A DNA stretch of 57,505 nt from positions 1 through 57,505 of the forward strand of contig JBAXUB010000007.1 in assembly GCA_037129895.1 (NCBI GenBank), given 5' to 3'. Source of the DNA: Candidatus Tayloriibacteriota bacterium. GTDB taxonomy: Bacteria; Patescibacteriota; Minisyncoccia; Phycocordibacterales; PALSA-1337. The translations under genes were made by a program, and so were the position numbers. This document shows positions 16,479 through 29,782 of this stretch, one piece after another (the first letter of the stretch is position 1; every line of letters begins with the position of its first letter). The notes under the pieces are model-generated. The model was not told the DNA's origin, ran no database searches, and worked only from the letters and a program-made list of their open reading frames with translations.

Positions 16479-16559
16479 TCTACCATTCTCGGCGCACTAC
16501 GGGAATTACCCCGTGAGGGGAGACACGTGCAGTTATCAACAGTCTATGTATTTGGCGTG

Positions 16560-16568
16560 TGATAGAAT
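16560..16568 (+). promoter_or_regulatory. Candidate extended -10 box (TGaTAGAAT) upstream of the giant-protein array
   Basis: TG-n-TAGAAT, 54 nt before the ATG at 16622. Motif match only. Confidence 0.3.
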
Positions 16569-16621
16569 GTACAGTATGTTGTCTACCAACTCGTCTATTA
16601 ATTATTAAAATATCATTATAT

Positions 16622-19600
16622 ATGAAAAAAATATTTCATTGTCTATTATTGGTTTCGATTGTAACTCTCGCGATAATTCCGATGACGACATTTGCTGCGA
16701 CATTGGTTACACCAGGGACGACAGATTCCACTGGTCAAAGTAGTGACCCAGTGATGATAGCATCACTCTCTATAGATAATCTGAAATATTCATATAATGA
16801 CGTTGATCGTAAGATTCAGGTCAGTTTCGATTTATCGAATGAAGATCAATCATTGAATAATGTCGGTTATTCATTGTTAGTATCATCTGATAATGGTGCA
16901 GAGAAGTCATTTGTATATAACAGGAATCTGTTTATAGCATCAAATAGCAAGATAAGTGAGAGTATAGATGAAACTATACCGGATTATATTTTTGGAAACG
17001 TAAATATATTAGTACAGGTTAGTAATTCGAGTGGTATACCTCTCGGCGTTCGTATGCGTGACGGAATTATGGTCAGTAAAATCGTAGACAGTATCCATGT
17101 GGATAGCAGTTCATGTTATCTCACTGTATCTGGAAATACCAAGTACAATCTGATACAAGGTGTTGATGTGGATCCTACTGAACAACTTTTTTTGAATTGT
17201 GGAATCATAGGAAATATACAGACACCATTTTTGCTCACATTGCCTAGTATGCGGACGTATGAACGATCTATCTCGGGTCCTCTCGTGGACGATTCTACAC
17301 TACCTACTATCACTCTGAAAAAGGGCGACTCGACGATCAAAATTCCAGTAAAGATTCCTACAAAACCTCAAGCTTATAGCTCTATAATCTCTGTGCTCAA
17401 TGGAGATAAATCTGATAAATCTATAGGTGATATTGAATTTCATTATGTGGTGAGGGGCGAAAGCGGTACGATGAATATGGCTCAAACAGATAAAACATCT
17501 TATGTGAAAGGTGATATAGCGCAATTGAAAATATTATGGTCACCAAGGGCTGACTATTTCCCGGGAGCGAGAGCCTCTAGTACAGCGGTAACAGGATCTT
17601 TGTCTGGAACTGTTTATATGACCTCAAACGGTAGTTCTTGTGGTGATCCAGTGTCGTTTACTCCTTCAAAGGAGACTGAAGAAGGTATAAACTTGAGTGT
17701 TCCGATGAAGATTGACTGCAATGGTTTCAGTACGAGAATAGAGGTCAAGGATGCGGATAGAGGGAATGTTATTGTCGATACGTCATTCAATACACCTGTT
17801 GATCCGAATTTCGGTAGAATCGACTGGCTTCAGTATATTATAGCTATTGGGTCTCTGTTAATAGCGATCATTCTGATAGTTGTTCTCATACGATTGAAGA
17901 AGAAACATTTGGATTCAAAGGTTTTACTCATTGCTTTCTTTCTTTTGGCATCAACCGGGATCGTGCAAGTGGCTAGGGCGTATACTCTGACATCGTGGTT
18001 TGCTTTCGATGGGTATGTATGGGTTATGACATTGTTGGGTGATTTTGAAGTTTATAGGTCAAGTGATTCTGCAACTTCTGGTTTCAAAGTTGGGGATAGT
18101 TTCACGGTTCATGATTACAAAAATAAGGTGTTTATGAGATGTGGCAATGGTGCTTATGTTGCTGTAGTTTCGAAAGTAACAGTTACAGGACCGACTGGTC
18201 AAAAACTGTTGTCTACATCATATCGAAAGTGTGATGGTGTAGAAGGAAAATATTGCATAAATGACGCTACTTTTTCGGCAAATTCTGTGGGAACCTATAC
18301 GATCACTGTGACATTTAAGATTGTTGATAATCAAGCAGGTTCATCGAAGGACATGCCGTTTACAAAAACGATCACGATAAGTCCAGAACCAGGTGCTGCC
18401 CCAGCTGCCCCACCAACACCGCCAGCGTCACTTCTACCTGTTACTGGCCTAGCTTCATCGATAGGTAGTTGCGGATCAAAGACGATCAATCTATCGTGGG
18501 ACATAATGTCTGGCGCAACACAGTATGTTGTTACTCGCACAGGAAGTGGTTCTACTAAGATCGTATACATAAACCAACCAGTATCAACCACTAGAGCGAG
18601 TTTCAGCAGCACGGGATTATTAGATGGAGCCCCTTATCAATATAGTGTCAAAGTTCGCTATCCGTCACCGTCAGGATTGTCACCAGCAGTAACAACGAAT
18701 GTCACGTCACCTGCCGTTTGTGGGCAACCTACGGTGTCATTGAGGGCAACTCCAGCGTCTATAACGGTTCGTGGTGTATCAGCACTTACATGGGAATCAG
18801 AGAACGCGACATCGTGTACCACCTCAGGAGATTGGCTATTGCAACAGACAAGTCCCGCGAGTCCATTTGGCGGCGTTAGTACCGGCGTACTGAGTACAGT
18901 GAAAACTTATACATATAATATTGTATGTACTGGTCCAGCTGGTACGAGTCCTGTCAGCACAGCAACAGTTACTGTGGTTCCAGTTAACTGCATTGCGAAT
19001 CCATTAGCTTCGGGATGTCCCCAAGTGCCAGTGGCAGACCCAGTTATTTCCTGTAGCATGACAGCTAGTCCGACTTCGGTAAACACTGGTGGTACTACGA
19101 CTCTTACATGGAATTCCAGTAATGCAACAATTTGCGTTCCACCTACAGGTACCGGGAGTTCTGGGACCACACCGTACTTGAATGGTAGTACTACTGTGCA
19201 CCCATATTCTGGTCATAATACTTTTACTTTGTCATGTTCAAATACTGCTATATTAAATTCTTGTAGTGCTCCAGTTACTGTGTCGATAAATGCTGGCGGA
19301 GAAGCACCAACTGCTTCGCCAAATATATACCTATGGTTTGGTAACAGATCAACACCGTTGATCGCTGATCCAGATGTATTGGGTCATATGAATAATCAGA
19401 CACCATTGACGGTTGTATTTGGTGAGGATGTGCCTATCAAGTTTAGTTGGCCAGATACAGTGACTAGGTGTAACGGTTATGAATTATCTGGACCAGATAT
19501 GACCACTTCTGGATGGACTGGGCCACTTAGTCGTGGTACGACCAAGGATACTACAACTGATCAATTGTTCGGTTCGTCTACGTTACGAAACCTTCCAGTT

Positions 19601-19744
19601 GGTACGTACAACCTCAAATTGAGTTGTGGCACAGATAGAACGGTAACCTCAGCTGACGGAACATCCTCCACAGTTACTGATACGAGTTTCAGTGCAAATT
19701 CAATAAAGTTATATGTCATCAAGTCTCTAATAAATGAAGACTAG
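16622..19744 (+). CDS. Giant secreted/membrane-anchored multidomain protein, paralog A
   Basis: 1040 aa from the ATG at 16622 (MKKIFHCLLLVSIVTLAIIPMTTFA signal peptide). The upstream ORF extension is rejected. Order of parts: an N-domain of about 400 aa shared with paralog B, an internal TM hairpin ending ARA|YT, a beta domain, a Pro-rich linker, an FN3-like module, two SW-S-NAT-C modules, and the shared C-terminal module. Confidence 0.85.
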   Translation: MKKIFHCLLLVSIVTLAIIPMTTFAATLVTPGTTDSTGQSSDPVMIASLSIDNLKYSYNDVDRKIQVSFDLSNEDQSLNNVGYSLLVSSDNGAEKSFVYNRNLFIASNSKISESIDETIPDYIFGNVNILVQVSNSSGIPLGVRMRDGIMVSKIVDSIHVDSSSCYLTVSGNTKYNLIQGVDVDPTEQLFLNCGIIGNIQTPFLLTLPSMRTYERSISGPLVDDSTLPTITLKKGDSTIKIPVKIPTKPQAYSSIISVLNGDKSDKSIGDIEFHYVVRGESGTMNMAQTDKTSYVKGDIAQLKILWSPRADYFPGARASSTAVTGSLSGTVYMTSNGSSCGDPVSFTPSKETEEGINLSVPMKIDCNGFSTRIEVKDADRGNVIVDTSFNTPVDPNFGRIDWLQYIIAIGSLLIAIILIVVLIRLKKKHLDSKVLLIAFFLLASTGIVQVARAYTLTSWFAFDGYVWVMTLLGDFEVYRSSDSATSGFKVGDSFTVHDYKNKVFMRCGNGAYVAVVSKVTVTGPTGQKLLSTSYRKCDGVEGKYCINDATFSANSVGTYTITVTFKIVDNQAGSSKDMPFTKTITISPEPGAAPAAPPTPPASLLPVTGLASSIGSCGSKTINLSWDIMSGATQYVVTRTGSGSTKIVYINQPVSTTRASFSSTGLLDGAPYQYSVKVRYPSPSGLSPAVTTNVTSPAVCGQPTVSLRATPASITVRGVSALTWESENATSCTTSGDWLLQQTSPASPFGGVSTGVLSTVKTYTYNIVCTGPAGTSPVSTATVTVVPVNCIANPLASGCPQVPVADPVISCSMTASPTSVNTGGTTTLTWNSSNATICVPPTGTGSSGTTPYLNGSTTVHPYSGHNTFTLSCSNTAILNSCSAPVTVSINAGGEAPTASPNIYLWFGNRSTPLIADPDVLGHMNNQTPLTVVFGEDVPIKFSWPDTVTRCNGYELSGPDMTTSGWTGPLSRGTTKDTTTDQLFGSSTLRNLPVGTYNLKLSCGTDRTVTSADGTSSTVTDTSFSANSIKLYVIKSLINED

Positions 19745-19776
19745 GATGTTAATTGTGCATGTAGCTAAGCATTAAA

Positions 19777-22700
19777 ATGAGAAAAATATTTTACTTCATT
19801 ATACCCCTATGTATAGCTGTGCCGATCATGGTATTTGGTCAGACGACGGCACCTACAACCTCTTCGCGGGCAACTGCGCCACAGAGTAATGTCGAGCCTA
19901 CGACGGTGGCTTCTCTGTCTATAGAGAATCTAAAGTATTCATACGATAATGTGACGAGACAAGTATTGGTATTCTTTGATCTGGTTAATGATCAAGAGTC
20001 GATCCCAGATGTAAACTACTCACTATCGATAATCTCTGACAATGGGATTAGAAAGGACTTTGTCTATAATAAAAATATTTTCTTGGCAAAAGGTGCATCT
20101 GTTTCTCAGGGTATAAATGAGATAGTCCCAGAATATATATTTGGAAATATTACTCTTTTGTTGCAAGCAAAATCTTCAAGTGGAGTTCCACTTGGTGTTC
20201 GTATACGTAAGGGAATAGAGATAAAACCCACTTTGAATACGGCGTACCTAGATAGTAGTTCATGCTATCTATCTGTGGCGGATTCGACGAAATATAACCT
20301 TACTCAAGGAGTTGATATAGATCCAACGGAACAATTGTATATAAACTGCAGTGTTATCAATATATTGAAGAATCCGTACACACTCGTACCTAAGATCAAG
20401 ACTTATGAGCGTTCAATATCTGGAAAATTGGTTGAGGAGTCCAAATTATCCGAAACATTCATAGATAAAGCGACATCAACCGTCAAGATATTGATCCCTG
20501 TTCCAAATAAGCCACAAGCTTATACATCTATACTGTCGTTGAATAGTGGTGGTATTTCTATAGGTGAAGTTTCATTACACTATGTTGTACGAGGTGAGAG
20601 TGGTACAGCTAGTCTAGTCCAGATGGATAAATTGTCATATTTATCTGGAGACATAGCAAAGGCAAAGATACTTTGGTCACCTAGAGCTGATTCATTTCCA
20701 GGTGCGAGAGCATCTTCAACAGATGCGAGTGGCTCATTCATGGGCAAACTATCTATATTGAAGAGTGGAACACCTTGTGCTGACCCTGTCACATTTTCAC
20801 CATCGAAGACCGCTGACCAGAATATAGAACTCGATGTACCAATTACTACAGATTGTAATGGCTATGAGACCAAGGTTGAAGTAAAAGACTCGAATAATAA
20901 TGACAGTATTGCTGCGGTTTCCTACAAGACTCCTGCGGTTATATTCCCATTGATGACAAATTGGCTACAATATGTCATAGCTCTTGCTGTACTCATCGTT
21001 GTATTAGCAATCTTAGCCGTTGTCGTCGCTATTATAAAGAGGAGAAGGAAATTTATAGACTCGATATTCGTATCGGTGGTAATACTCTTCCTGGTTTCAT
21101 TCTTGTCTGTTAGAGATGTCAGAGCGTATTTATTTACGGTATTGTTTACGAGCGACGGAGGTTCAGTATATATGACATTTTTCGGTGATTTTGAAGTGAC
21201 GGACTTTAATAGTGAAGCGAAGACAACATTCATTAAAGGCGCGGGTGTAAGAATAACCGATTACAAGACAAAGATGTTTCTAAGATGTGCGAATAATGGT
21301 GGAGCCTATGATTCCGTACAGTCAAAAGTGACCGTGACCAGAAACGGCGTAAGCCAGATATTGAGAAATTATACGTCTGTATGTGATTCCTCATCGTTAT
21401 CAGATTATTGTTACAATCATGTAGATTGGTTACCAATATATTCTGGCACGTACACAGTCACAGTTACTTTCAGGGCATTAGAGACGAATTCTACAGCGTG
21501 GGGTAATGAATATTCATATTCAAAGACGATAACAGTCATTGAGCCTAAACAATTGGATATTTCATTTACTGGTACTGGAGCAAGTCAGGGTAAGGTAAAT
21601 CTAGCCAATGCATCAGAATCATCATGTATTGGTCCTTCTCTGTGTACGGTGCCAGTAGCAGTCAATTCTACGGTAAGCGTAACTAATGCTATAGCAAGAT
21701 CGACCACACTGAATACCAACAATCTAACATGTACAATATCGAATCCAGGTTCGTACTATATGGCTACATACAGTGGTTCAATATCAGGCGGTACAACACC
21801 TTATGTGATATATCTGAAAAATGTCATCACTAATGGTTCGCCGGTCTCATACTATGTGTCATATGTGCCGAGTTATACGCAATTCAGGAGTCTTCGTACT
21901 GACACATCATCTGCGTATGTGGAGGTTTCATCCGCTGATGGGCAAATGAGTCAAGTGAGTTGCGGAGGTGCTAGTGTACCCAACCTGACCAGAGGGTATA
22001 CTCAGTTCACTGGATGGGCAGGTGCATGTAGCGGAACAGGTAGTTGTTCTGTTTTGATGAATACTGATAAGAGTGTCCAAGCAGGATATAATTGGGTTCC
22101 ACTTACTCCGAACCACAATCCATCAGTGCCAGTCGTTACTTCAGCTTCTAGTTGCTCTGATATTACGGGTAACATGCCGTATAAGCTGTCATTTGTTATG
22201 ACTGACCCCGATTCTGATCAGGTTCAATTATATGAAGACAAGGGATATCCATCATATTATCAGCCCTATGGCAGTATGATGAATTCTGGCTCGTCCGTTA
22301 TCTATTCAAAGAGTTACACAACTACGGGGGTAAAGACGATTAACTTCAAAGTATATGATGTAAATGGTGCCAATTCTACAATATATTCAACTACAACAAC
22401 CATAGTCGCAAAATGTGCACCAGTAGTGACACTTGTAGCTGACCCTATCTCTATAGTGACCAGTGCGTCTTCGAGTCTGTCTTGGTCATCAGTTAATGCG
22501 ACAGCCTGTGTAACCTCTGGAGATTGGCCTTCGCCACAGACGAGTACAACCAGTGCAAAGTTGACCGGAGGTAAATTGAGCACTGGCATTTTGTCCGTTG
22601 CAAAGACATATTCATACAGTATGAGCTGTACGGGTACAGGTGGTAAGAGTGCTACGAGTACGGTGACGGTGTCGGCAGCCAATGTTGTACCGTTAGCCCT

Positions 22701-23595
22701 CACGTGTAGTGCAAATAATACGTCAGTACCTCCGCAAGGCCTAGAGACTATATTTAGAGGTGCAATTTCTGCTAGTGATCCAGGTACTGGACCCTATTAT
22801 TGGAATAACATGACTTCATCGTCGGTATATAACGCCACAAATACGACGATATTCTATCAAAATGGTACGACTTCACCACCGACATTCAGTGTCAAAGACT
22901 CATCCAATCCGCAAAGAATAGGTAACGTAGCTTGTGCACCGATACGTTTAGAAACTACATTGATGAAGTGTGACCTGAAGATAGACGGTAAAGATAATAA
23001 TGTGGTGGCCTCTCCAGGTTATAATATGCCAGTGACTTGGTCTTCAACTAATGCTCTAAGTTGTATAGTGGACCCTATGGACTGGAAAGATCTGAGTGGT
23101 GGTAAGGATGAATATAATGTTAATGTTACTGAAACAAATACCTACACGTTAAGTTGTACGAACACTAGAGCAACCCCACCAATTTGTACTGACTCTATTA
23201 CTCTTAGAATGGTTACTGGTGATGGTATCCCGAATGCGGTAGTCTGGTTTGATTCTCAGTTTCCGAATGTTTCTGAAGCACCTGATAATGTTCAGGCTTC
23301 TAAAAAAACGTTATCTGTTCAAGAGGGTACCACAGTTAAAATTGGAAATAGTTGGAATGAGAATCTTATTGCATCATGTAAAGGTGTTACGATATCTGGT
23401 CCTTCGAATAATGGATGGACTAATACCTCTTTGCCGAATAACACTTTAAAGATTCTTCCTTCAAATCTATCTGTTGGTACATATAAGTTAAGCATGACTT
23501 GTGACGGTATACCTTCTGAAGAGAGTACTGTAGAAACTTATACGAGCAACACGATCCGTCTCATAGTGACAAAGTCTATACTAAAGGAAAATTAA
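19777..23595 (+). CDS. Giant secreted/membrane-anchored multidomain protein, paralog B
   Basis: 1272 aa. Signal peptide, N-domain alignable to A (NLKYSY, TYERSISG, HYVVRGESGT, ILWSPRAD.FPGARASST), and an internal TM hairpin ending VRA|YL. It also has an InlB-B-repeat-like FTGWAGACSGTGSCSV segment, a PKD-like module, SW-S-NAT-C modules, and the shared C-terminal module. Confidence 0.88.
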   Translation: MRKIFYFIIPLCIAVPIMVFGQTTAPTTSSRATAPQSNVEPTTVASLSIENLKYSYDNVTRQVLVFFDLVNDQESIPDVNYSLSIISDNGIRKDFVYNKNIFLAKGASVSQGINEIVPEYIFGNITLLLQAKSSSGVPLGVRIRKGIEIKPTLNTAYLDSSSCYLSVADSTKYNLTQGVDIDPTEQLYINCSVINILKNPYTLVPKIKTYERSISGKLVEESKLSETFIDKATSTVKILIPVPNKPQAYTSILSLNSGGISIGEVSLHYVVRGESGTASLVQMDKLSYLSGDIAKAKILWSPRADSFPGARASSTDASGSFMGKLSILKSGTPCADPVTFSPSKTADQNIELDVPITTDCNGYETKVEVKDSNNNDSIAAVSYKTPAVIFPLMTNWLQYVIALAVLIVVLAILAVVVAIIKRRRKFIDSIFVSVVILFLVSFLSVRDVRAYLFTVLFTSDGGSVYMTFFGDFEVTDFNSEAKTTFIKGAGVRITDYKTKMFLRCANNGGAYDSVQSKVTVTRNGVSQILRNYTSVCDSSSLSDYCYNHVDWLPIYSGTYTVTVTFRALETNSTAWGNEYSYSKTITVIEPKQLDISFTGTGASQGKVNLANASESSCIGPSLCTVPVAVNSTVSVTNAIARSTTLNTNNLTCTISNPGSYYMATYSGSISGGTTPYVIYLKNVITNGSPVSYYVSYVPSYTQFRSLRTDTSSAYVEVSSADGQMSQVSCGGASVPNLTRGYTQFTGWAGACSGTGSCSVLMNTDKSVQAGYNWVPLTPNHNPSVPVVTSASSCSDITGNMPYKLSFVMTDPDSDQVQLYEDKGYPSYYQPYGSMMNSGSSVIYSKSYTTTGVKTINFKVYDVNGANSTIYSTTTTIVAKCAPVVTLVADPISIVTSASSSLSWSSVNATACVTSGDWPSPQTSTTSAKLTGGKLSTGILSVAKTYSYSMSCTGTGGKSATSTVTVSAANVVPLALTCSANNTSVPPQGLETIFRGAISASDPGTGPYYWNNMTSSSVYNATNTTIFYQNGTTSPPTFSVKDSSNPQRIGNVACAPIRLETTLMKCDLKIDGKDNNVVASPGYNMPVTWSSTNALSCIVDPMDWKDLSGGKDEYNVNVTETNTYTLSCTNTRATPPICTDSITLRMVTGDGIPNAVVWFDSQFPNVSEAPDNVQASKKTLSVQEGTTVKIGNSWNENLIASCKGVTISGPSNNGWTNTSLPNNTLKILPSNLSVGTYKLSMTCDGIPSEESTVETYTSNTIRLIVTKSILKEN

Positions 23596-23627
23596 ATTAT
23601 TAATGTGGGAATTAAAATCAAAAAACG

Positions 23628-26600
23628 ATGAAAATTATTAGCAAATCGATCATTATAATTCCACTACTTGCATTATCGCTATATATTTCGCAAGCAAATG
23701 CTGTTAGAGCCCAATCAAATGATGTTGAACAGTTAGAAGTTACAAGCTGTTTTGATCATTACAAATTTGGTGGTGTAGAGGTTAGTTTTATATCTTCACC
23801 AAGCGAGCGATTTTCGGCCGGTACGAAGCTGGATTTTAGTGGAAACATAATTAATACAAATGATTATCCGATTCTCGATGTGATGATCTACGCAAAGATA
23901 TTCAAGAGAAATACGGTAAATAGTCAAGATGATCAGGTAGATCAATTCATTGTTATGGACGGTTTCAATCTAAAAGCTTTGGATAAAAGATCGGTCCATT
24001 TTACTTGGTCAATACCTGCATACGCTCTAAGCGGTGACTACACATTGAAGACGTATGTTATTTCCAGTCAGCGATTCAATCATAGCGGTCTATCATTTAC
24101 TGAAGATGTTTCGGCAAGTATGATGAGTTTTGGCGTATACGGAGAGCGGAAAGGTATATTGAATTTCGATAAAGACAAGGTTTATGTGAATGATGCGAAA
24201 TTTAACTTTGCCGCATTCATTCCGCAGGTAGATCGATATAAACCTATTGACGTTAAAGCATTAATATCCAACCGTTCCTCCAATGATGAGTCGGCTATTA
24301 TCACTTACAAATTGTATAAATGGGACGGTATTCGGCCTGAAAACCTTGTCTCAAGTTCAGAAGAGATTCGAACTATCAAGGCAAATAGTGATTTGGATGT
24401 ATTCTATAAAATTGAGGACAATTCGACTTCAGTATATTATCTGACAATCGAAGCGCGGTATAAGGATACAAAATCAATTCTCAACGTTAGAGTTGCTAGA
24501 AATGGAGCTGATGTACCCAGGATCAATTCAGTGGGTGTCAGTAAATATCCAATAGATGTAAATACGACAATATTTTCTTGTGTACATAATACAGGGCAAA
24601 CCACGGAGATTGACGGTTACCATATGGGTATAGAATTGAGTAATGAGTATGGCGATACCCTATATCAAGGAGAATATCGGGGAAAAATTTCTAGTGCTGT
24701 AATGGGGTTAGAGAATGTTCTTTCAGGTGTAAAAGAACCTTTGGGTAATTTCGATATACAAGTAATGCTATACGACAAGGATGATGTCGTTATTGATAAA
24801 GTTGTGCTTATTTATGATTGCAGTATTATCGATCCAACAAAGTGTAGTAGTTCATCTACTTTAATCTTGAACTATATAGGACATAATTTGTTGGTATCAT
24901 TTATAATAATGGCATTATTTATCATATTGACAATGACGATCATTACTACCAGACACAAGAAGATCCAACACAATCATCCCACACTAACTATGCTGTTACT
25001 TGGTGGAATACTTTTTGGTAGTGCATATGTCAATATACCGTATTTTGTAGAGGCAGAAGAAGTTAAACAAAATATATTTTTACCCAATCCAGGTGTAGGT
25101 GATATTTCGTATCTTTCTAATTTCATGAGATCCAGCGGCACTAATTCTGCAACCATGAATACAGGTTTTTTTGGAGGTGCTAGTGGATATAGTCAAATGT
25201 ATCTTACTGTTAATACATATTATGGGATAAATATTTATAAGAAGTCTTCTTACCTTGGGATGTACGAGAAGATTGGAAGTGATGCTATAGTCAAGGTCGG
25301 TGAATTTATTAAAATTGAGAGTTGGAATATAGGTGCTTCAGGCAGTCTGGCAAACAACGTATCTTGGAATGGTTCGGGTTCCGCAGCTGATACACCATAC
25401 GTATATTGGGTTTTGCGTGATTATCAAAAACCCTATGATAATACGGGGTGTAATGAAAATGATTACGTATTTAAGACCACCTACCCCAACCATCCTGGCA
25501 GAAAATATCGTTTCTACTATCCAGTTACTATAACTATACCGAGCTTTAATACTAGCGGTACGAGCGCAAGAGAGACTTCCGTAGGCACAAATGAGTGGAT
25601 GGTTACAGATGCCGGTAAGATAGATTTTACTGCTACAATAGGTGCGACTAAGGCTCATCCATATATTGCTAGTGAGTTTGATATCTGTGAAATACAGAAC
25701 CAAGCTATAACAGATGGAGTAAATCATATAGTAATAGACGGCCATACTTTCAATTTTACATTGACTGCTGTACCCCCTACACCTGCAAATCAAGCACCAA
25801 GTATACCAACTGCTAGTGTAACTAGTTCCTGTGCGGACTCGACAGGAAGCAGTCCAATTACTTTTATAATTTCTGCAACTGATCCTGAGAGTAATCGTGT
25901 AAAATACAGCATAGATTACGGTGATGGCGGCGGATGGACATCGACGGGAATGTTTTATGATTCTGGTCAGCCAGTTACGTATTCTAAGAATTATGCTTCA
26001 CCAGGAACTAAACAAATAAGTATCAAAGCAGAAGATACAAATGGAAGTGTGTCGTCAGTATTAACTGTTACTTCAAACGTTTTAGCGAATTGTAACCTTT
26101 TGAATGCTACTTGCAGCCTTAATCCGCCTAGTGGTGCGCTATCTAGCGACGGGGGTAGTGTAAGATTCACTGAAACTGCCAATACGGATACGTCAAAATA
26201 TGTCTATCAATGGAATAATTCAACACTTTCTAATCAGCCAAATAATCTATCGCTTGTATATCCACAGAATACAACTAATAAAGCTATAGTATCGCCTGGA
26301 CCAGAATTGATTCTAACTAGAAAGTCTGACCTTGTCTCAATGAGAATACAGTGTGGCAGTGTAACTACGGCACTAAATAATACGCTCTCATGTGGTTCAT
26401 TGACGGTTAGTCCACAGTCGATCCCAGTAAATGGAACGGTATATATTTCGTGGAAGTCTACGAGTAATGCATCGAGTTGCCTCCTAAACACTGTCTCGGT
26501 AGCGACATCGAGTGGCAATCTATCTGATAATCCAAGTCAAAATACTACATATTCATTACAATGTACCAATTCAAATACTATACCGACAAGCTGTAGTTCA

Positions 26601-27026
26601 AACAGTCAGATTGTAATTATAACTAGACCAGCCAACTCTGGAAAAGTTAAACTATTAATATCTAGATCAAACGCGACTACATTATCGGTGACTGATCTGA
26701 CGGATGCGACATTGGGAAATACATATTACACGTCTTCAAATAAATTTCTTTCCGTGAGACTTGGCGAGTCGTTCAAGTTGCAGACAAACATCGGGCCCGA
26801 TTTTCGAAGCTGTTCAAACAGTATCTCAAAAAGTTTAACTCCGTCTGCTAATGAATGGTCAGGTATGACGTCTACCTCAACTTCTTATAGTAAGACCCTC
26901 GCGACTGATTCAAATACTGAATTGGGAACATATATATTCAGAATTTCGTGTATTGATGATGTGGGGACGATTGCATCTAGCTCAGTCAAGTTGAATATTA
27001 CAAATACTGTATTGAATGAACTGTGA
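23628..27026 (+). CDS. Giant secreted/membrane-anchored multidomain protein, paralog C (distinct N-domain)
   Basis: 1132 aa. Signal peptide (ends NAVRAQS), a different N-terminal beta-rich region, and an internal TM hairpin ending VEA|EE. It also has a PKD-like module (DYGDGGGW), one SW-STSNASSC module, and the shared C-terminal module. Confidence 0.85.
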   Translation: MKIISKSIIIIPLLALSLYISQANAVRAQSNDVEQLEVTSCFDHYKFGGVEVSFISSPSERFSAGTKLDFSGNIINTNDYPILDVMIYAKIFKRNTVNSQDDQVDQFIVMDGFNLKALDKRSVHFTWSIPAYALSGDYTLKTYVISSQRFNHSGLSFTEDVSASMMSFGVYGERKGILNFDKDKVYVNDAKFNFAAFIPQVDRYKPIDVKALISNRSSNDESAIITYKLYKWDGIRPENLVSSSEEIRTIKANSDLDVFYKIEDNSTSVYYLTIEARYKDTKSILNVRVARNGADVPRINSVGVSKYPIDVNTTIFSCVHNTGQTTEIDGYHMGIELSNEYGDTLYQGEYRGKISSAVMGLENVLSGVKEPLGNFDIQVMLYDKDDVVIDKVVLIYDCSIIDPTKCSSSSTLILNYIGHNLLVSFIIMALFIILTMTIITTRHKKIQHNHPTLTMLLLGGILFGSAYVNIPYFVEAEEVKQNIFLPNPGVGDISYLSNFMRSSGTNSATMNTGFFGGASGYSQMYLTVNTYYGINIYKKSSYLGMYEKIGSDAIVKVGEFIKIESWNIGASGSLANNVSWNGSGSAADTPYVYWVLRDYQKPYDNTGCNENDYVFKTTYPNHPGRKYRFYYPVTITIPSFNTSGTSARETSVGTNEWMVTDAGKIDFTATIGATKAHPYIASEFDICEIQNQAITDGVNHIVIDGHTFNFTLTAVPPTPANQAPSIPTASVTSSCADSTGSSPITFIISATDPESNRVKYSIDYGDGGGWTSTGMFYDSGQPVTYSKNYASPGTKQISIKAEDTNGSVSSVLTVTSNVLANCNLLNATCSLNPPSGALSSDGGSVRFTETANTDTSKYVYQWNNSTLSNQPNNLSLVYPQNTTNKAIVSPGPELILTRKSDLVSMRIQCGSVTTALNNTLSCGSLTVSPQSIPVNGTVYISWKSTSNASSCLLNTVSVATSSGNLSDNPSQNTTYSLQCTNSNTIPTSCSSNSQIVIITRPANSGKVKLLISRSNATTLSVTDLTDATLGNTYYTSSNKFLSVRLGESFKLQTNIGPDFRSCSNSISKSLTPSANEWSGMTSTSTSYSKTLATDSNTELGTYIFRISCIDDVGTIASSSVKLNITNTVLNEL

Positions 27027-27072: not shown

Positions 27073-28236
27073 ATGAGCAAAAGAACAGTTTTACGTGCAG
27101 TATCAATATCACTTGCAATATTTTTCATTAGTTTGTCATTATCGGCATTGGTCCGAGCAGAAACGACTACGTCGACTGGTATTTGTCCAAAAAGGTTTAT
27201 TTGCGTAAAAACAAAAGCGAGTTGTCCTATAGGATATGTTTGTACACCAAATGATGAAAATAGTTACGGAACGATAAAAATGCAGGCAATGACTAGTAAT
27301 ACCAATTATGTACCAGGAACGTGGTATAACAATGCAATTTTAATCAATGATAGAACTATGAATAGCAGTATGTCAACAAATGCGGTGAGAGCGACAAATT
27401 TAGTAGGCACTACTAGTAGTACAGCATCAGTATCTGGTCAAGAAACAGATGCGAATAGTTCGTCTAACAGCGCATCCGCATCGTCTAACCCTGAAGTATA
27501 TTCAGGCCTTGTTACTAGGGATGATAGTGTGTGGCAGCATGCAACGAATTTGTCGTGGACAGCGTATACGACTGATCAACCTGGTGCGCTTATCACATTG
27601 TGTAGATTTCCCATAACTGACGATGGGGCTAGATTGTGGCAACAAGTTTTGAGAGAGCGAGGCATTAATGCAGATTTCTTGACTGATGATTCAACACTCT
27701 ATGTTACTTGGACAGCAAGTTCATATAGAACGTATCTCGCACAATCAAAAACTCAATCTGCAGGCAAGGCTAGCCAGCAATTCCCAGCATCGAGACTTGC
27801 GAGATGTCTAGATTCGGACTATGTATCAAACTTTCCTGAATGGTCTAGTCACTTTACGAGCGTTTTGACACCAAAAGCAGCTCCGTTACCGCCACTTGCA
27901 ACATCGTCTGTATCGTACAATGTAAGTGTGAATTATAGTTCTTTTGCGGCAGAAGCACAGCAAAACCATTACACCTCAATCTATACTGGTTCAGGAACAA
28001 AGATTGTTTCTGTAACGGTATTCAAGTTCAATGATAGTCCTACGATGACAGCTGACCAAGTGATAAGTAACCTGAACAGTCTCGGTTATCGTCCAGCGGT
28101 TATCTCTGAGCTCGCAGCTCTACGAACAGGGTTAGGAATTGTTGCTCTGGGTACTAACCTCGGTGGGAGCTATGGTTATCCAGTCACAGGCACTGGTTCC
28201 AACGGCTCGTTCAATCAAGTGACTGGTCTCGGCTAA
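27073..28236 (+). CDS. Secreted protein with Cys-rich N-terminus. Possibly the 5' part of a frame-disrupted giant-protein gene
   Basis: 387 aa. Signal peptide (LSALVRA|ETT), GICPKRFICVKTKASCPIGYVCTP segment, Ser/Thr-rich. Its stop overlaps the open frame of the next ORF. Confidence 0.7.
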   Translation: MSKRTVLRAVSISLAIFFISLSLSALVRAETTTSTGICPKRFICVKTKASCPIGYVCTPNDENSYGTIKMQAMTSNTNYVPGTWYNNAILINDRTMNSSMSTNAVRATNLVGTTSSTASVSGQETDANSSSNSASASSNPEVYSGLVTRDDSVWQHATNLSWTAYTTDQPGALITLCRFPITDDGARLWQQVLRERGINADFLTDDSTLYVTWTASSYRTYLAQSKTQSAGKASQQFPASRLARCLDSDYVSNFPEWSSHFTSVLTPKAAPLPPLATSSVSYNVSVNYSSFAAEAQQNHYTSIYTGSGTKIVSVTVFKFNDSPTMTADQVISNLNSLGYRPAVISELAALRTGLGIVALGTNLGGSYGYPVTGTGSNGSFNQVTGLG

Positions 28237-28297: not shown

Positions 28298-29782
28298 GTG
28301 CAGTCTATAGGAGACTGCTACGACATCACAGGGAGTCACCCTGTACAAATATTTATTTCTGTTCGAGACCCTGAGTCTGATCTAATGGCTTTGTGGGTAC
28401 AATATGGTGATAGTGACGGGTATGTAAATACTGATAATGGAAATGCTTTCGGTGGTAATATATCTAAAGATTATTCGTCTATTGGCGACAAAATTACAAA
28501 TATCAAGGTTATTGATGAACACGGTGCAGTTTCTAATATAGTGTCTGTTACTTCAAAAGTTGTAGCGAATTGTAACCCGGCTCCGACTGTTACACTTACT
28601 GCTTCACCGACGCAAGTCGGAACGAATAGTGACTCAGAACTTAGTTGGACTTCAACAAATGCTACAGCATGTGTTACTGCTGGTGATTGGACGGTACCAC
28701 AGAGAGCTACTAGTACAATTAATTATAATACCGGTCCACTTACGATAGAAAAAAATTATACGTATTCAATCAGTTGCACTGGTCCAGGTGGTAAAAGTGC
28801 GACCAGTACGGCAACAGTAACAGCGACGGGTCCTATAACACTAACATGTACGCCGAGTATAGAGACTGTCAGTCCTAATGGAGAGAATGTTACATTTACA
28901 GCAAATATTGTAGGAGTTTCAAAACCTAATTATGATTGGGGTGTGTCCATACTACCAGTACGAGCTATGACACAAAATTCATCATCCGCGTCGTATAAAT
29001 ATCTTGCGGTAAATTATAGTCCAAACAGTACAGGTCCAACATTCCACGTAGTTGATTCGTCAGAACCTCAGCAGCGCAGTGCATCTGTAACCTGTGCAAG
29101 TTTACCGGCATATGTTCCACTAAATATATCATGTAATTTGTCGGCTAATCCGCAATTCTTATTTACAACCGGTAATACTAAACTGTCATGGACGTCGACC
29201 AATGCGACAAGTTGCTCAATTGATAATGTACCAGCTAAGGATTCTAATGTACCTACAGGATCACTGGGAAGTGGGAATATAGTATTAAATACAACATCCA
29301 CCGGAGTTACAAGGTTTACAATGACATGTCTCAATCCACTAGCCGCAAATACTACGTGTAAAAGTTCAGTCGACGTAACAGTCGGTGATGGAACAGCTGA
29401 CGCCATTTTATGGTTTGATTCTCAGTTTACAGGCCAAAATGGAGCACCGTTATTGACCGCCATACAAGCCAAGCCACCTCTCACTGTTAATCAGGGTACA
29501 GATGTAACTATAAAGACAGACTTTGATACGAGCGTTATTGAATCCTGTACTGGTATTAAGAAATCGGGTCCGTCAGGCGCTGCGATGAATATGTGGACAA
29601 CTTTATATATTTCTCCTCAGACAAAGACTGTCACACTGACAGGAACCAGTCTATCGATCGGTACATATGAACTTGGTCTAAGTTGTAAGGGTTACACACC
29701 AGCTGTAGGTACTGCTCAAACATACCCGAGTGACAATACAATCCGTTTGAAGGTTATAAACTCCGTATTACGAGAGATTTAA
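28298..29782 (+). CDS. Paralog fragment with no signal peptide: PKD-like module, SW-S-NAT-C modules and the shared C-terminal module
   Basis: 494 aa from a GTG. The frame is open from 28223, and the upstream translation (PANTVVHPNTAPVFNN) aligns with the linker preceding the PKD-like module in B and C. There is no in-frame ATG and no signal peptide. Confidence 0.65.
   Translation: MQSIGDCYDITGSHPVQIFISVRDPESDLMALWVQYGDSDGYVNTDNGNAFGGNISKDYSSIGDKITNIKVIDEHGAVSNIVSVTSKVVANCNPAPTVTLTASPTQVGTNSDSELSWTSTNATACVTAGDWTVPQRATSTINYNTGPLTIEKNYTYSISCTGPGGKSATSTATVTATGPITLTCTPSIETVSPNGENVTFTANIVGVSKPNYDWGVSILPVRAMTQNSSSASYKYLAVNYSPNSTGPTFHVVDSSEPQQRSASVTCASLPAYVPLNISCNLSANPQFLFTTGNTKLSWTSTNATSCSIDNVPAKDSNVPTGSLGSGNIVLNTTSTGVTRFTMTCLNPLAANTTCKSSVDVTVGDGTADAILWFDSQFTGQNGAPLLTAIQAKPPLTVNQGTDVTIKTDFDTSVIESCTGIKKSGPSGAAMNMWTTLYISPQTKTVTLTGTSLSIGTYELGLSCKGYTPAVGTAQTYPSDNTIRLKVINSVLREI

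Follow-up and report, generated by a model that had tools for sequence, protein, structure and literature searches.

The separation of one secretory polypeptide into two products by the general signal peptidase has so far been tied to enveloped viruses, a few eukaryotic proteins (IGSF1) and plastid PsbY; in bacteria this principle is known only from the release of a single domain, as in LtaS. The plastid PsbY polyprotein is inserted as hairpins of a signal peptide and a mature transmembrane (TM) segment, from which the thylakoidal processing peptidase, a type I signal peptidase homologue, produces two proteins. C. difficile SlpA is cut after export by Cwp84, a dedicated cysteine protease, and not at an internal signal peptide, and Sulfolobus SlaA and SlaB are encoded by separate genes, SlaB being a membrane-anchored stalk with a C-terminal TM segment. 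Mammalian IGSF1 is cut co-translationally by signal peptidase into N- and C-terminal domains (PMC5841168). In the Gn-Gc precursors of bunyaviruses and phleboviruses, and in other viral envelope precursors, the host's signal peptidase makes its cut on the extracytoplasmic face, after which the products often remain together (PMC7926653, PMC4974537). In S. aureus LtaS, as in LtaS-type enzymes of B. subtilis, signal peptidase I (SpsB) cuts after an internal TM segment, the last one, and frees a large extracellular C-terminal domain (PMC12260438). Here we analyse a stretch of 57,505 nucleotides (nt) from Candidatus Tayloriibacteriota bacterium (Patescibacteriota; assembly GCA_037129895.1, contig JBAXUB010000007.1, positions 1 to 57,505), hereafter the window, in which three adjacent genes, A, B and C, each encode a pair of hydrophobic segments (TM1 and TM2) in mid-protein. 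We propose on sequence grounds, with a probability of about 0.7, that each of A, B and C is a natural fusion of two secretory genes that were neighbours, in which TM2 would be an internal signal peptide cut by signal peptidase I (SPase I).

Three adjacent genes with a mid-protein hairpin

The products of A, B and C share one layout: a signal peptide, a β-sandwich ectodomain of ~400 amino acids (aa), TM1, a Lys/Arg loop, a shorter TM2 and an all-β C-half of 590-820 aa. Hydropathy scans revealed in each an N-terminal signal-like segment and exactly two more hydrophobic segments, at residues ~400-476. Translation of the window reproduced all three hairpin peptide strings that the original prediction, made from this DNA alone, had listed; its hairpin coordinates are in frame for C (24885), while those for A and B lie one nucleotide out of frame, the codons starting at 17825 and 20959. 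The mechanical open reading frame (ORF) for A opens with a GTG at 16559, 21 codons 5' of the ATG at 16622 (16559-16621); the database gene call and all homologues begin at MKKIF (16622), leaving a normal signal peptide. The features are given below, where ↓ marks a predicted cut.

16622..19744, + strand: gene A, 1040 aa, ATG start (MKKIF); the database gene call P0001 is also 1040 aa
16622..16696, + strand: A N-terminal signal peptide, residues 1-25, predicted cut TFA↓AT; helix 2-22 in the model, then a disordered stretch
16697..17824, + strand: A N-half ectodomain, residues 26-401, the conserved superfamily module; modelled β-sandwich domains, read as three
17825..17890, + strand: A TM1, putative stop-transfer anchor, residues 402-423, WLQYIIAIGSLLIAIILIVVLI; helix 402-425 in the model
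17891..17920, + strand: A basic loop, presumably cytoplasmic, residues 424-433, RLKKKHLDSK
17921..17980, + strand: A TM2, putative internal signal peptide, residues 434-453, VLLIAFFLLASTGIVQVARA, ending VARA↓YT; predicted SPase I cut after Ala453, between nt 17980 and 17981
17981..19741, + strand: A C-half, residues 454-1040, YTLTSW at its start and YVIKSLINED at its end; a string of all-β domains in the model
19777..23595, + strand: gene B, 1272 aa, paralog of A
19777..19839, + strand: B N-terminal signal peptide, residues 1-21, predicted cut VFG↓QT
20962..21036, + strand: B TM1, residues 396-420, WLQYVIALAVLIVVLAILAVVVAII
21037..21060, + strand: B basic loop, residues 421-428, KRRRKFID
21061..21126, + strand: B TM2, putative internal signal peptide, residues 429-450, SIFVSVVILFLVSFLSVRDVRA, ending DVRA↓YL; predicted cut after Ala450, between nt 21126 and 21127
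21127..23592, + strand: B C-half, residues 451-1272, YLFTVL at its start and IVTKSILKEN at its end
23628..27026, + strand: gene C, 1132 aa, distant paralog of the same architecture
23628..23711, + strand: C N-terminal signal peptide, residues 1-28, predicted cut VRA↓QS, or alternatively ANA↓VR after residue 25
24888..24950, + strand: C TM1, residues 421-441, LLVSFIIMALFIILTMTIITT
24951..24980, + strand: C basic loop, residues 442-451, RHKKIQHNHP
24981..25055, + strand: C TM2, putative internal signal peptide, residues 452-476, TLTMLLLGGILFGSAYVNIPYFVEA, ending FVEA↓EE; predicted cut after Ala476, between nt 25055 and 25056
25056..27023, + strand: C C-half, residues 477-1132, homologous to stand-alone C-half genes bearing a signal peptide, for example L005:2378-5197

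Natural split genes correspond to the two halves

The decisive evidence on the nature of TM2 comes from natural split forms. The C-family proteins P0006 and P0009 are N-halves that end just after TM1 and a basic tail; adjoining P0009, with a 17-nt overlap and in a different frame, is a 939-aa gene whose product starts MTRIFSIISSCLFAVTVLLNGASNVEA↓ASKS and aligns collinearly with the C-half of C (E 3e-11). In species-representative genomes the C family comprises 30 fused genes (C of the window counted), 21 split pairs and 13 loci that are N-half-only or undetermined. The downstream gene of the split pairs starts anywhere from a 61-nt overlap to +24 nt, often with an ATGA overlap, except at L053 (assembly gap); a hidden Markov model (HMM) built on the fused C-half recognises it (hmmsearch E 6e-76 to 2e-18). 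This second gene begins in most pairs with a classical signal peptide that ends in the same junction as the fused TM2, [AV]-x-A↓[KE]-S-V-x-W (examples are VRGVEA↓KSTIW, SSARA↓ESVLW, VVSHA↓ESVMW and VGRAEA↓KSDTW); in the aligned junction, Ala occupies position -1 in 26/30 fused and 16/21 split forms, and [KE]-S-V-x-W follows in both. Splits of this kind occur in the A/B family too: downstream of P0061 lies a gene with an ATGA overlap that starts MKHTIIQFRRYSVAKMVLVVLVLLAPLCVVRA↓DTFYS, and downstream of P0027 one that starts FPGEVRG↓DTAVD. Thus the segment that is internal in A, B and C (residues ~430-476) is N-terminal in the split orthologues and, by sequence, the orthologue of TM2 is the N-terminal Sec signal peptide of a second gene, separate and translationally coupled. 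A fused ORF would therefore amount to a type I anchored protein and a secreted protein in one reading frame, and the suggestion that such an ORF encodes two secreted proteins gains support from both subfamilies, in which the same -3/-1 and +1 to +5 motif closes a genuine N-terminal signal peptide.

We considered genetic code 25 or stop-codon read-through as the source of the split forms and rejected both, because the stop codons of the 21 pairs are mixed (TAA 14, TAG 4, TGA 3), each of the three TGA stops runs into the start codon that follows (ATGA in L016 and L020), where the second gene uses another frame, and gene 2 is out of frame with gene 1 in 17/21 pairs. Fused and unfused forms interleave on a neighbour-joining tree of 64 N-halves, which implies at least 13 switches between them; this count is rough, the tree being a quick distance tree, unrooted in practice, in which paralogy is ignored. 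A word-indexed search with a profile of the first C-half domain of the C family returned nothing, and the question of split or fused was answered from the genome loci. Some loci hold an N-half only: L001-L004 (the P0006 loci), L017, L022, L023, L027 and L032 have unrelated genes downstream (GT2 glycosyltransferase, GAPDH, ribosomal protein L3). Hence an anchored N-half can exist without an adjacent C-half partner, and together with the separate C-half genes of many genomes this argues that the two parts are independent functional proteins.

The hairpin is the norm in a large superfamily

A word-indexed search yielded three relatives of A and four of C; TM1 is kept in 7/7, and the five that extend past it all have small residues at -3/-1 (VWA↓V, VRA↓Y, ARA↓Y, AFA↓L, AEA↓K). 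With the A/B profile as query, exhaustive searching by HMMER yielded 1065 representatives (clusters at 50% identity) at E<=1e-3, 510 of them at E<=1e-30. We inspected the best 150 of the 1065 for the hairpin: a second hydrophobic segment lies 1-17 residues after TM1 in 135/135 long representatives (133 detected automatically, plus P0049 and P0083, below the automatic threshold, by eye), 14 representatives end 8-22 aa after TM1, and no case of a single TM with a long tail occurred among these top matches. The hairpin is also present in the 29 fused C-family genes of species-representative genomes other than C of the window. A scan of those genomes for the C-family N-half gave 70 loci, mostly labelled Patescibacteria/Candidate Phyla Radiation (Kaiserbacteria, Moranbacteria, Paceibacterota, Parcubacteria and others); about a dozen are labelled otherwise (Bdellovibrionales, an archaeon, a gammaproteobacterium, plain 'bacterium'), which we take as mislabels. 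Searched against Pfam-A, A, B and C gave nothing above the curated cut-offs and only sub-threshold hints of PKD, DUF4625 and Y_Y_Y, and against NCBIfam no match. The hairpin architecture is thus the norm, far beyond chance, in a large unannotated superfamily of Patescibacteria.

Whole cassettes also occur concatenated. P0051 (869 aa) has two tandem N-half modules linked by TM1-RLRAK-TM2 (GVSAHA↓QA) and ends with a C-terminal TM segment and KRRTANQ. P0016 (1887 aa) has two successive hairpins, at 412-455 and 849-893, the second ending AHSVHA↓GIT, and may give three products.

The second hydrophobic segment resembles a signal peptide

The cleavage-site columns were read from a MAFFT alignment of 133 hairpins, from representatives sharing at most 50% identity pairwise, at the position of ARA↓YT in A and without site picking; a simple best-site picker had been set aside in favour of these column counts, since it introduced selection bias and misplaced some sites. 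Position -1 is Ala in 95%, the remainder being mostly Gly, Ser or Thr; position -3 is Ala in 68%, Val in 23%, Thr in 5% and Ser in 3%, together 99%; and position -2 is Lys, Arg, Gln, Glu or His. Upstream, -20 to -12 form a Leu/Ile/Phe core and -11 is Gly in 66%; downstream, +1 is Asp in 56%, +2 Thr in 79% and +3 Phe in 53%. Pro is outside the six most frequent residues listed at -3 to +1. The corresponding tripeptides in the window are A-R-A (A), V-R-A (B) and V-E-A (C), and in a 75-sequence alignment, where most members share 20-27% identity with A, no more than 34 columns are nearly invariant, that of Ala453 among them. The preferences are the same in the N-terminal signal peptides of these proteins (-1 Ala 92%; -3 Ala 43%, Val 30%, Ser 10%). 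Across the family, median loop length is 6 aa, the median counts of Lys/Arg and Asp/Glu in the loop are 4 and 0, and the hydrophobic span is ~17 residues for TM2 vs ~20 for TM1. An AlphaFold2 model of A residues 1-600, built with the 75-sequence alignment (predicted local distance difference test (pLDDT) 85, predicted template modelling score (pTM) 0.80), has a helix of 24 residues at TM1 and one of only 12 residues (432-443) at TM2, followed by coil (444-451, pLDDT <50), and the first strand of the C-half begins at 454, that is at +1.

These features of TM2 are consistent with the n/h/c anatomy of an SPase I substrate. The original prediction had described helix 2 in these terms, and the family bears the description out, with a Lys/Arg n-region, a short h-region, Gly at -11, Ala at -1 in 95% and A/V/T/S at -3 in 99%; it had also named conservation of the -3/-1 residues in homologues as one check, and their loss as one sign of its failure, and they turn out to be strongly kept, the opposite of loss. 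Other export signals do not fit. SPase II is excluded because there is no Cys at +1 for a lipobox (the residue is Tyr in A and B and Glu in C, and the frequent residues of the family do not include Cys); prepilin peptidase is excluded because the type IV pilin motif G↓F/M-x-x-x-E is absent from the loop/TM2 boundary, at the junction of n- and h-regions, the conserved site lying after the h-region. Nor do the C-halves carry C-terminal sorting signals (LPXTG, PEP-CTERM, PGF-CTERM and similar): they end SLINED, SILKEN and TVLNEL, with no terminal hydrophobic segment.

Proposed processing and its alternatives

We infer the topology and the fate of the products as follows. Gene 1 would have encoded a type I membrane-anchored surface protein, made of a signal peptide, a ~400-aa β-sandwich ectodomain, a C-terminal TM segment and a short basic tail; gene 2 would have encoded a secreted multi-domain β-sandwich protein with its own Sec signal peptide. 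On fusion, the anchor of gene 1 would have become TM1, its tail together with the n-region of gene 2 the Lys/Arg loop, and the signal peptide of gene 2 TM2. In the fused protein, the N-terminal signal peptide would begin Sec translocation of the N-half; TM1 would halt transfer and leave the basic loop in the cytoplasm; TM2 would restart translocation in an N-in/C-out orientation; and SPase I would cut after the conserved A/V-x-A, at Ala453 in A, Ala450 in B and Ala476 in C. The expected products are an N-half retained in the membrane by the TM1-loop-TM2 hairpin and a free C-half whose new N-terminus would be YTLTSW in A (YTLTSWFAFDGYVWVMTLLGDFEVYR), YLFTVL in B (YLFTVLFTSDGG) and EEVKQN in C (EEVKQNIFLPNPG). 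Both would be made 1:1 at the same translocon and probably act together, as the anchor and the displayed subunit of a cell-surface structure. That both halves would lie outside the cytoplasm, as had been predicted, follows from the N-terminal signal peptide, the positive-inside loop (4 Lys/Arg, 0 Asp/Glu) and the signal peptide carried by the split C-half orthologues.

Several observations weigh against this scheme. A position-specific scoring matrix (PSSM), trained by expectation-maximization on the family's N-terminal signal peptides, scores TM2 at a median of 2.6; the training set scores 13.0, shuffles -0.5 and TM1 -5.8, and the site of B -6.7. The moderate TM2 score is due, in our view, to the training set, whose residues at -2, +1 and +2 are family-specific; the matrix is dominated by these inherited residues (xFA↓QE), and we rejected it as a fair test of TM2, keeping only the -3/-1 comparison. 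The residues from +1 to +3 are conserved too (D-T-F in the A/B superfamily, K-S-V-x-W in the C family), so that the junction could owe some of its conservation to the fold of the first C-half strand and not to protease recognition. In C, the h-region and c-region are long (25 residues), with Pro at -6. No SPase I gene was found in the window, either by Pfam on ten of its ORFs (180-250 aa) or by scanning it for motifs, and 735 kb of relatives' flanks, scanned likewise for motifs, were negative as well; we count all three scans as uninformative, and the presence of SPase I in this organism is an assumption. For TM7x, a cultivated Patescibacterium, genes for SPase I have been predicted (10.1101/2022.03.25.485537). 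Finally, A and its relative P0002 are 93-100% identical over the N-half and 80-100% over most of the distal C-half, and only 30-53% identical over the hairpin and first C-half domain (17825-18420, residues ~400-600), where P0002 keeps small -3/-1 residues (VWA↓V). By sequence, precisely the junction module seems to have been replaced as a cassette or to have diversified strongly, which fits poorly with a tightly co-evolving interface between N-half and C-half.

The main rival to cleavage is that TM1 and TM2 form an uncleaved helical-hairpin anchor, which would staple a single polypeptide mid-chain with both halves outside and covalently joined, A-x-A being a relic or part of the strand fold. 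The topology it predicts is identical, the conserved +1 to +3 residues and the strand beginning at +1 perhaps make the junction conservation partly structural, and the poor PSSM score of the site in B agrees with it. We nevertheless consider it unlikely: a relic would not keep 95% Ala at -1 and 99% small or aliphatic residues at -3 where identity elsewhere is about 20-27%, the two subfamilies, whose +1 to +5 motifs differ, share only the -3/-1 rule, the modelled TM2 (a 12-residue helix and a disordered c-region) is short for a stable membrane span, and the same motif ends genuine N-terminal signal peptides in the split orthologues. The difference between the subfamilies at +1 to +5 also bears on a cut at or near the junction by another protease, whether rhomboid, site-2-type or a surface maturation protease reading A↓DTF or A↓KSV, for which the conserved +1 to +3 residues could be the recognition motif; here again it is -3/-1 that both subfamilies share, in keeping with the SPase I rule, and the split forms need only the ordinary Sec/SPase I route, so that we hold another protease to be improbable. 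We put in the same low class a regulated, partial cleavage of the LtaS kind, for which the regulated cutting of S. aureus LtaS by SpsB is a precedent (PMC12260438).

That the fusions are an artefact, an assembly or sequencing error or a pseudogenisation having removed the stop codon between two genes, might be suspected from the fact that fused and split forms differ only inside a short loop and that the split case L005/L006 can be read as a frameshift. This reading is effectively refuted by the recurrence of the pattern, with three adjacent fused genes in the window, more than 130 independent fused representatives and 29 further ones in species-representative genomes, from many studies, all with loops that are in frame, stop-free and conserved in character.

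If SPase I does resolve the fused ORFs, the case may extend to a polyprotein strategy across the phylum Patescibacteria, in which one ORF would provide the anchor and the displayed subunits of a major surface assembly, separated by SPase I at the Sec translocon, with repeated flips between fused and coupled split forms and with the freed subunit kept at the surface through an undescribed Glu motif at the extreme C-terminus, N-W-K-E-V-A-P-COOH or hydrophobic-x-E-x-COOH, common to both subfamilies. We advance this broader proposal tentatively, as conceivable but somewhat doubtful.

Paralogy, gene neighbourhood and possible function

A and B are plain, close paralogs, with 44% identity over 595 aa that run from the signal peptide through the N-half and the hairpin to residue ~130 of the C-half; their distal modules are also common to both. 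The original prediction counted C as a third paralog, which holds only in a distant sense: by BLASTP, C matches A/B in the distal C-half modules only, with no similarity between their N-halves and hairpins, and a shallow profile-profile comparison of the N-halves aligned TM1 alone. The deep 75-sequence profile makes the link, the C-family and A/B N-halves being collinear up to TM1 (hhalign probability 97.8%, E 8e-13, 315 columns).

The three genes belong to a run of five + strand ORFs at 16.5-29.8 kb of the window, a region of unremarkable base composition. Upstream of the run are genes that, from their translations and outside the Pfam scan, we take to be scpA, scpB and an FtsW/RodA-like gene; downstream are rpsB and tsf (Pfam). 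Superfamily genes adjoin housekeeping genes at the examined loci, elsewhere ruvX, map, secY, adk and ruvA. The last ORF of the run, E (28298-29782, 494 aa, GTG start), is 37.5% identical to B residues 787-1271, that is to the distal C-half modules including the C-terminal motif, and has neither a signal peptide nor an N-half. ORF D (27073-28236), just 5' of E in a different frame, is unlike A, B and C in sequence and carries a classical signal peptide (SLSALVRA↓ETT). Possibly E is a remnant, or a frameshift has broken a single gene into D and E.

In the AlphaFold2 model of A, the N-half forms β-sandwich domains over residues 44-390. Foldseek against the PDB returned generic multi-β-sandwich arrays only (complement C3/C5, alpha-2-macroglobulin MG domains, fibronectin; TM-scores <=0.21), with no functional lead. 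The C-half of A is modelled as a string of β-sandwich domains, at modest quality (pLDDT 67.5, pTM 0.29). Its first ~130 residues are conserved between A and B, the family consensus has conserved positions in this part too (A.ADTF...VN..K..Y.PGE.I), and the distal C-half ranges from about 200 to 1500 aa across the family.

Whether fused or split, the C-halves of the two subfamilies carry at their extreme C-terminus a conserved motif in which a Glu is invariant. Its first form, [NG]-W-[KR]-E-V-[ASTN]-P-COOH, occurs in 49/135 A/B-family representatives and in many C-family members; the other, V-x-[VI]-x-P-x-[FIWY]-x-E-x-COOH, in at least 30/135, and A, B, C and E of the window are of this kind:

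19712-19741, + strand: C-terminal motif of A, YVIKSLINED
23563-23592, + strand: C-terminal motif of B, IVTKSILKEN
26994-27023, + strand: C-terminal motif of C, NITNTVLNEL
29750-29779, + strand: C-terminal motif of E, KVINSVLREI

The motif was also seen in P0017-P0157 and in the C-halves of the L loci. It is unlike LPXTG, PEP-CTERM and PGF-CTERM in that no TM segment follows it, and a literature search on a C-terminal Glu motif gave no match. Possibly the motif serves the freed C-half as a signal for retention, sorting or strand complementation.

As to function, our guess is a two-subunit cell-surface assembly of an anchor and a displayed, diversifying subunit, and we would further guess that fusion guarantees their 1:1 co-export. 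The superfamily is probably a main component of the cell surface that these episymbionts show to their hosts. A preprint surveying surface-layer (S-layer) proteins reports new ones in Paceibacterales, in detail too scant to link them with this superfamily.

Implications and comparison with known systems

Should cleavage be confirmed, A, B and C would, as far as we could find, exemplify the first secretory polyprotein known to be widespread in bacteria and divided by the general signal peptidase. Since gene callers and predictors of signal peptides and topology read these ORFs as single two-TM proteins, inventories of the Patescibacteria proteome, secretome and surface would then miscount and misplace more than 1000 protein clusters. 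The interleaved fused and split forms constitute a natural experiment on the joining of stop-transfer anchors and signal peptides, and they bear on why minimal genomes might select stoichiometric co-export.

The principle itself is already known; its bacterial, phylum-wide, fusion/fission-polymorphic instance and the superfamily appear to be undescribed, as our literature searches found no description of such an architecture in bacteria or Patescibacteria. Among surface proteins, SlpA and SlaA/SlaB, which form two-subunit surface layers from one precursor or one operon, resemble the arrangement proposed for A, B and C in pairing an anchor or stalk with a displayed subunit, encoded together and stoichiometric, and SlaB resembles the N-half. 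PsbY differs by its tiny single-TM products, its Sec-independent insertion and its nature as a nuclear-encoded protein of a eukaryotic organelle. LtaS is the bacterial precedent for an SPase I cut after an internal TM segment, but it has a polytopic N-terminal membrane domain without an ectodomain, no cleavable N-terminal signal peptide and a sulfatase-like fold, whereas A, B and C have only two internal hydrophobic segments, no sulfatase domain in Pfam or NCBIfam and all-β models. None of IGSF1, viral Gn-Gc, PsbY and LtaS is related to A, B and C by descent.

In layout, A, B and C follow the IGSF1 and viral-precursor class, a mechanistic likeness and not homology: a signal peptide, a first ectodomain, a stop-transfer TM segment, a loop, an internal signal peptide and a second ectodomain. 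Like them, the viral Gn-Gc precursor puts two ectodomain proteins in one ORF, the TM segment and tail of the first being followed by a hydrophobic internal signal peptide; it differs in being viral, processed in the eukaryotic endoplasmic reticulum (ER) and unrelated in sequence and fold, whereas the products of A, B and C are β-sandwich arrays of a cellular organism. The closest mechanistic match is IGSF1, which has the same blueprint and whose cleavage has been demonstrated (PMC5841168). It is a eukaryotic protein without sequence relationship to A, B and C, handled by the ER signal peptidase complex and signal peptide peptidase; its C-terminal part has a TM anchor of its own and its N-terminal part is kept in the ER, whereas the C-half of A, B and C is free of TM segments and natural split-gene counterparts of the fused form exist.

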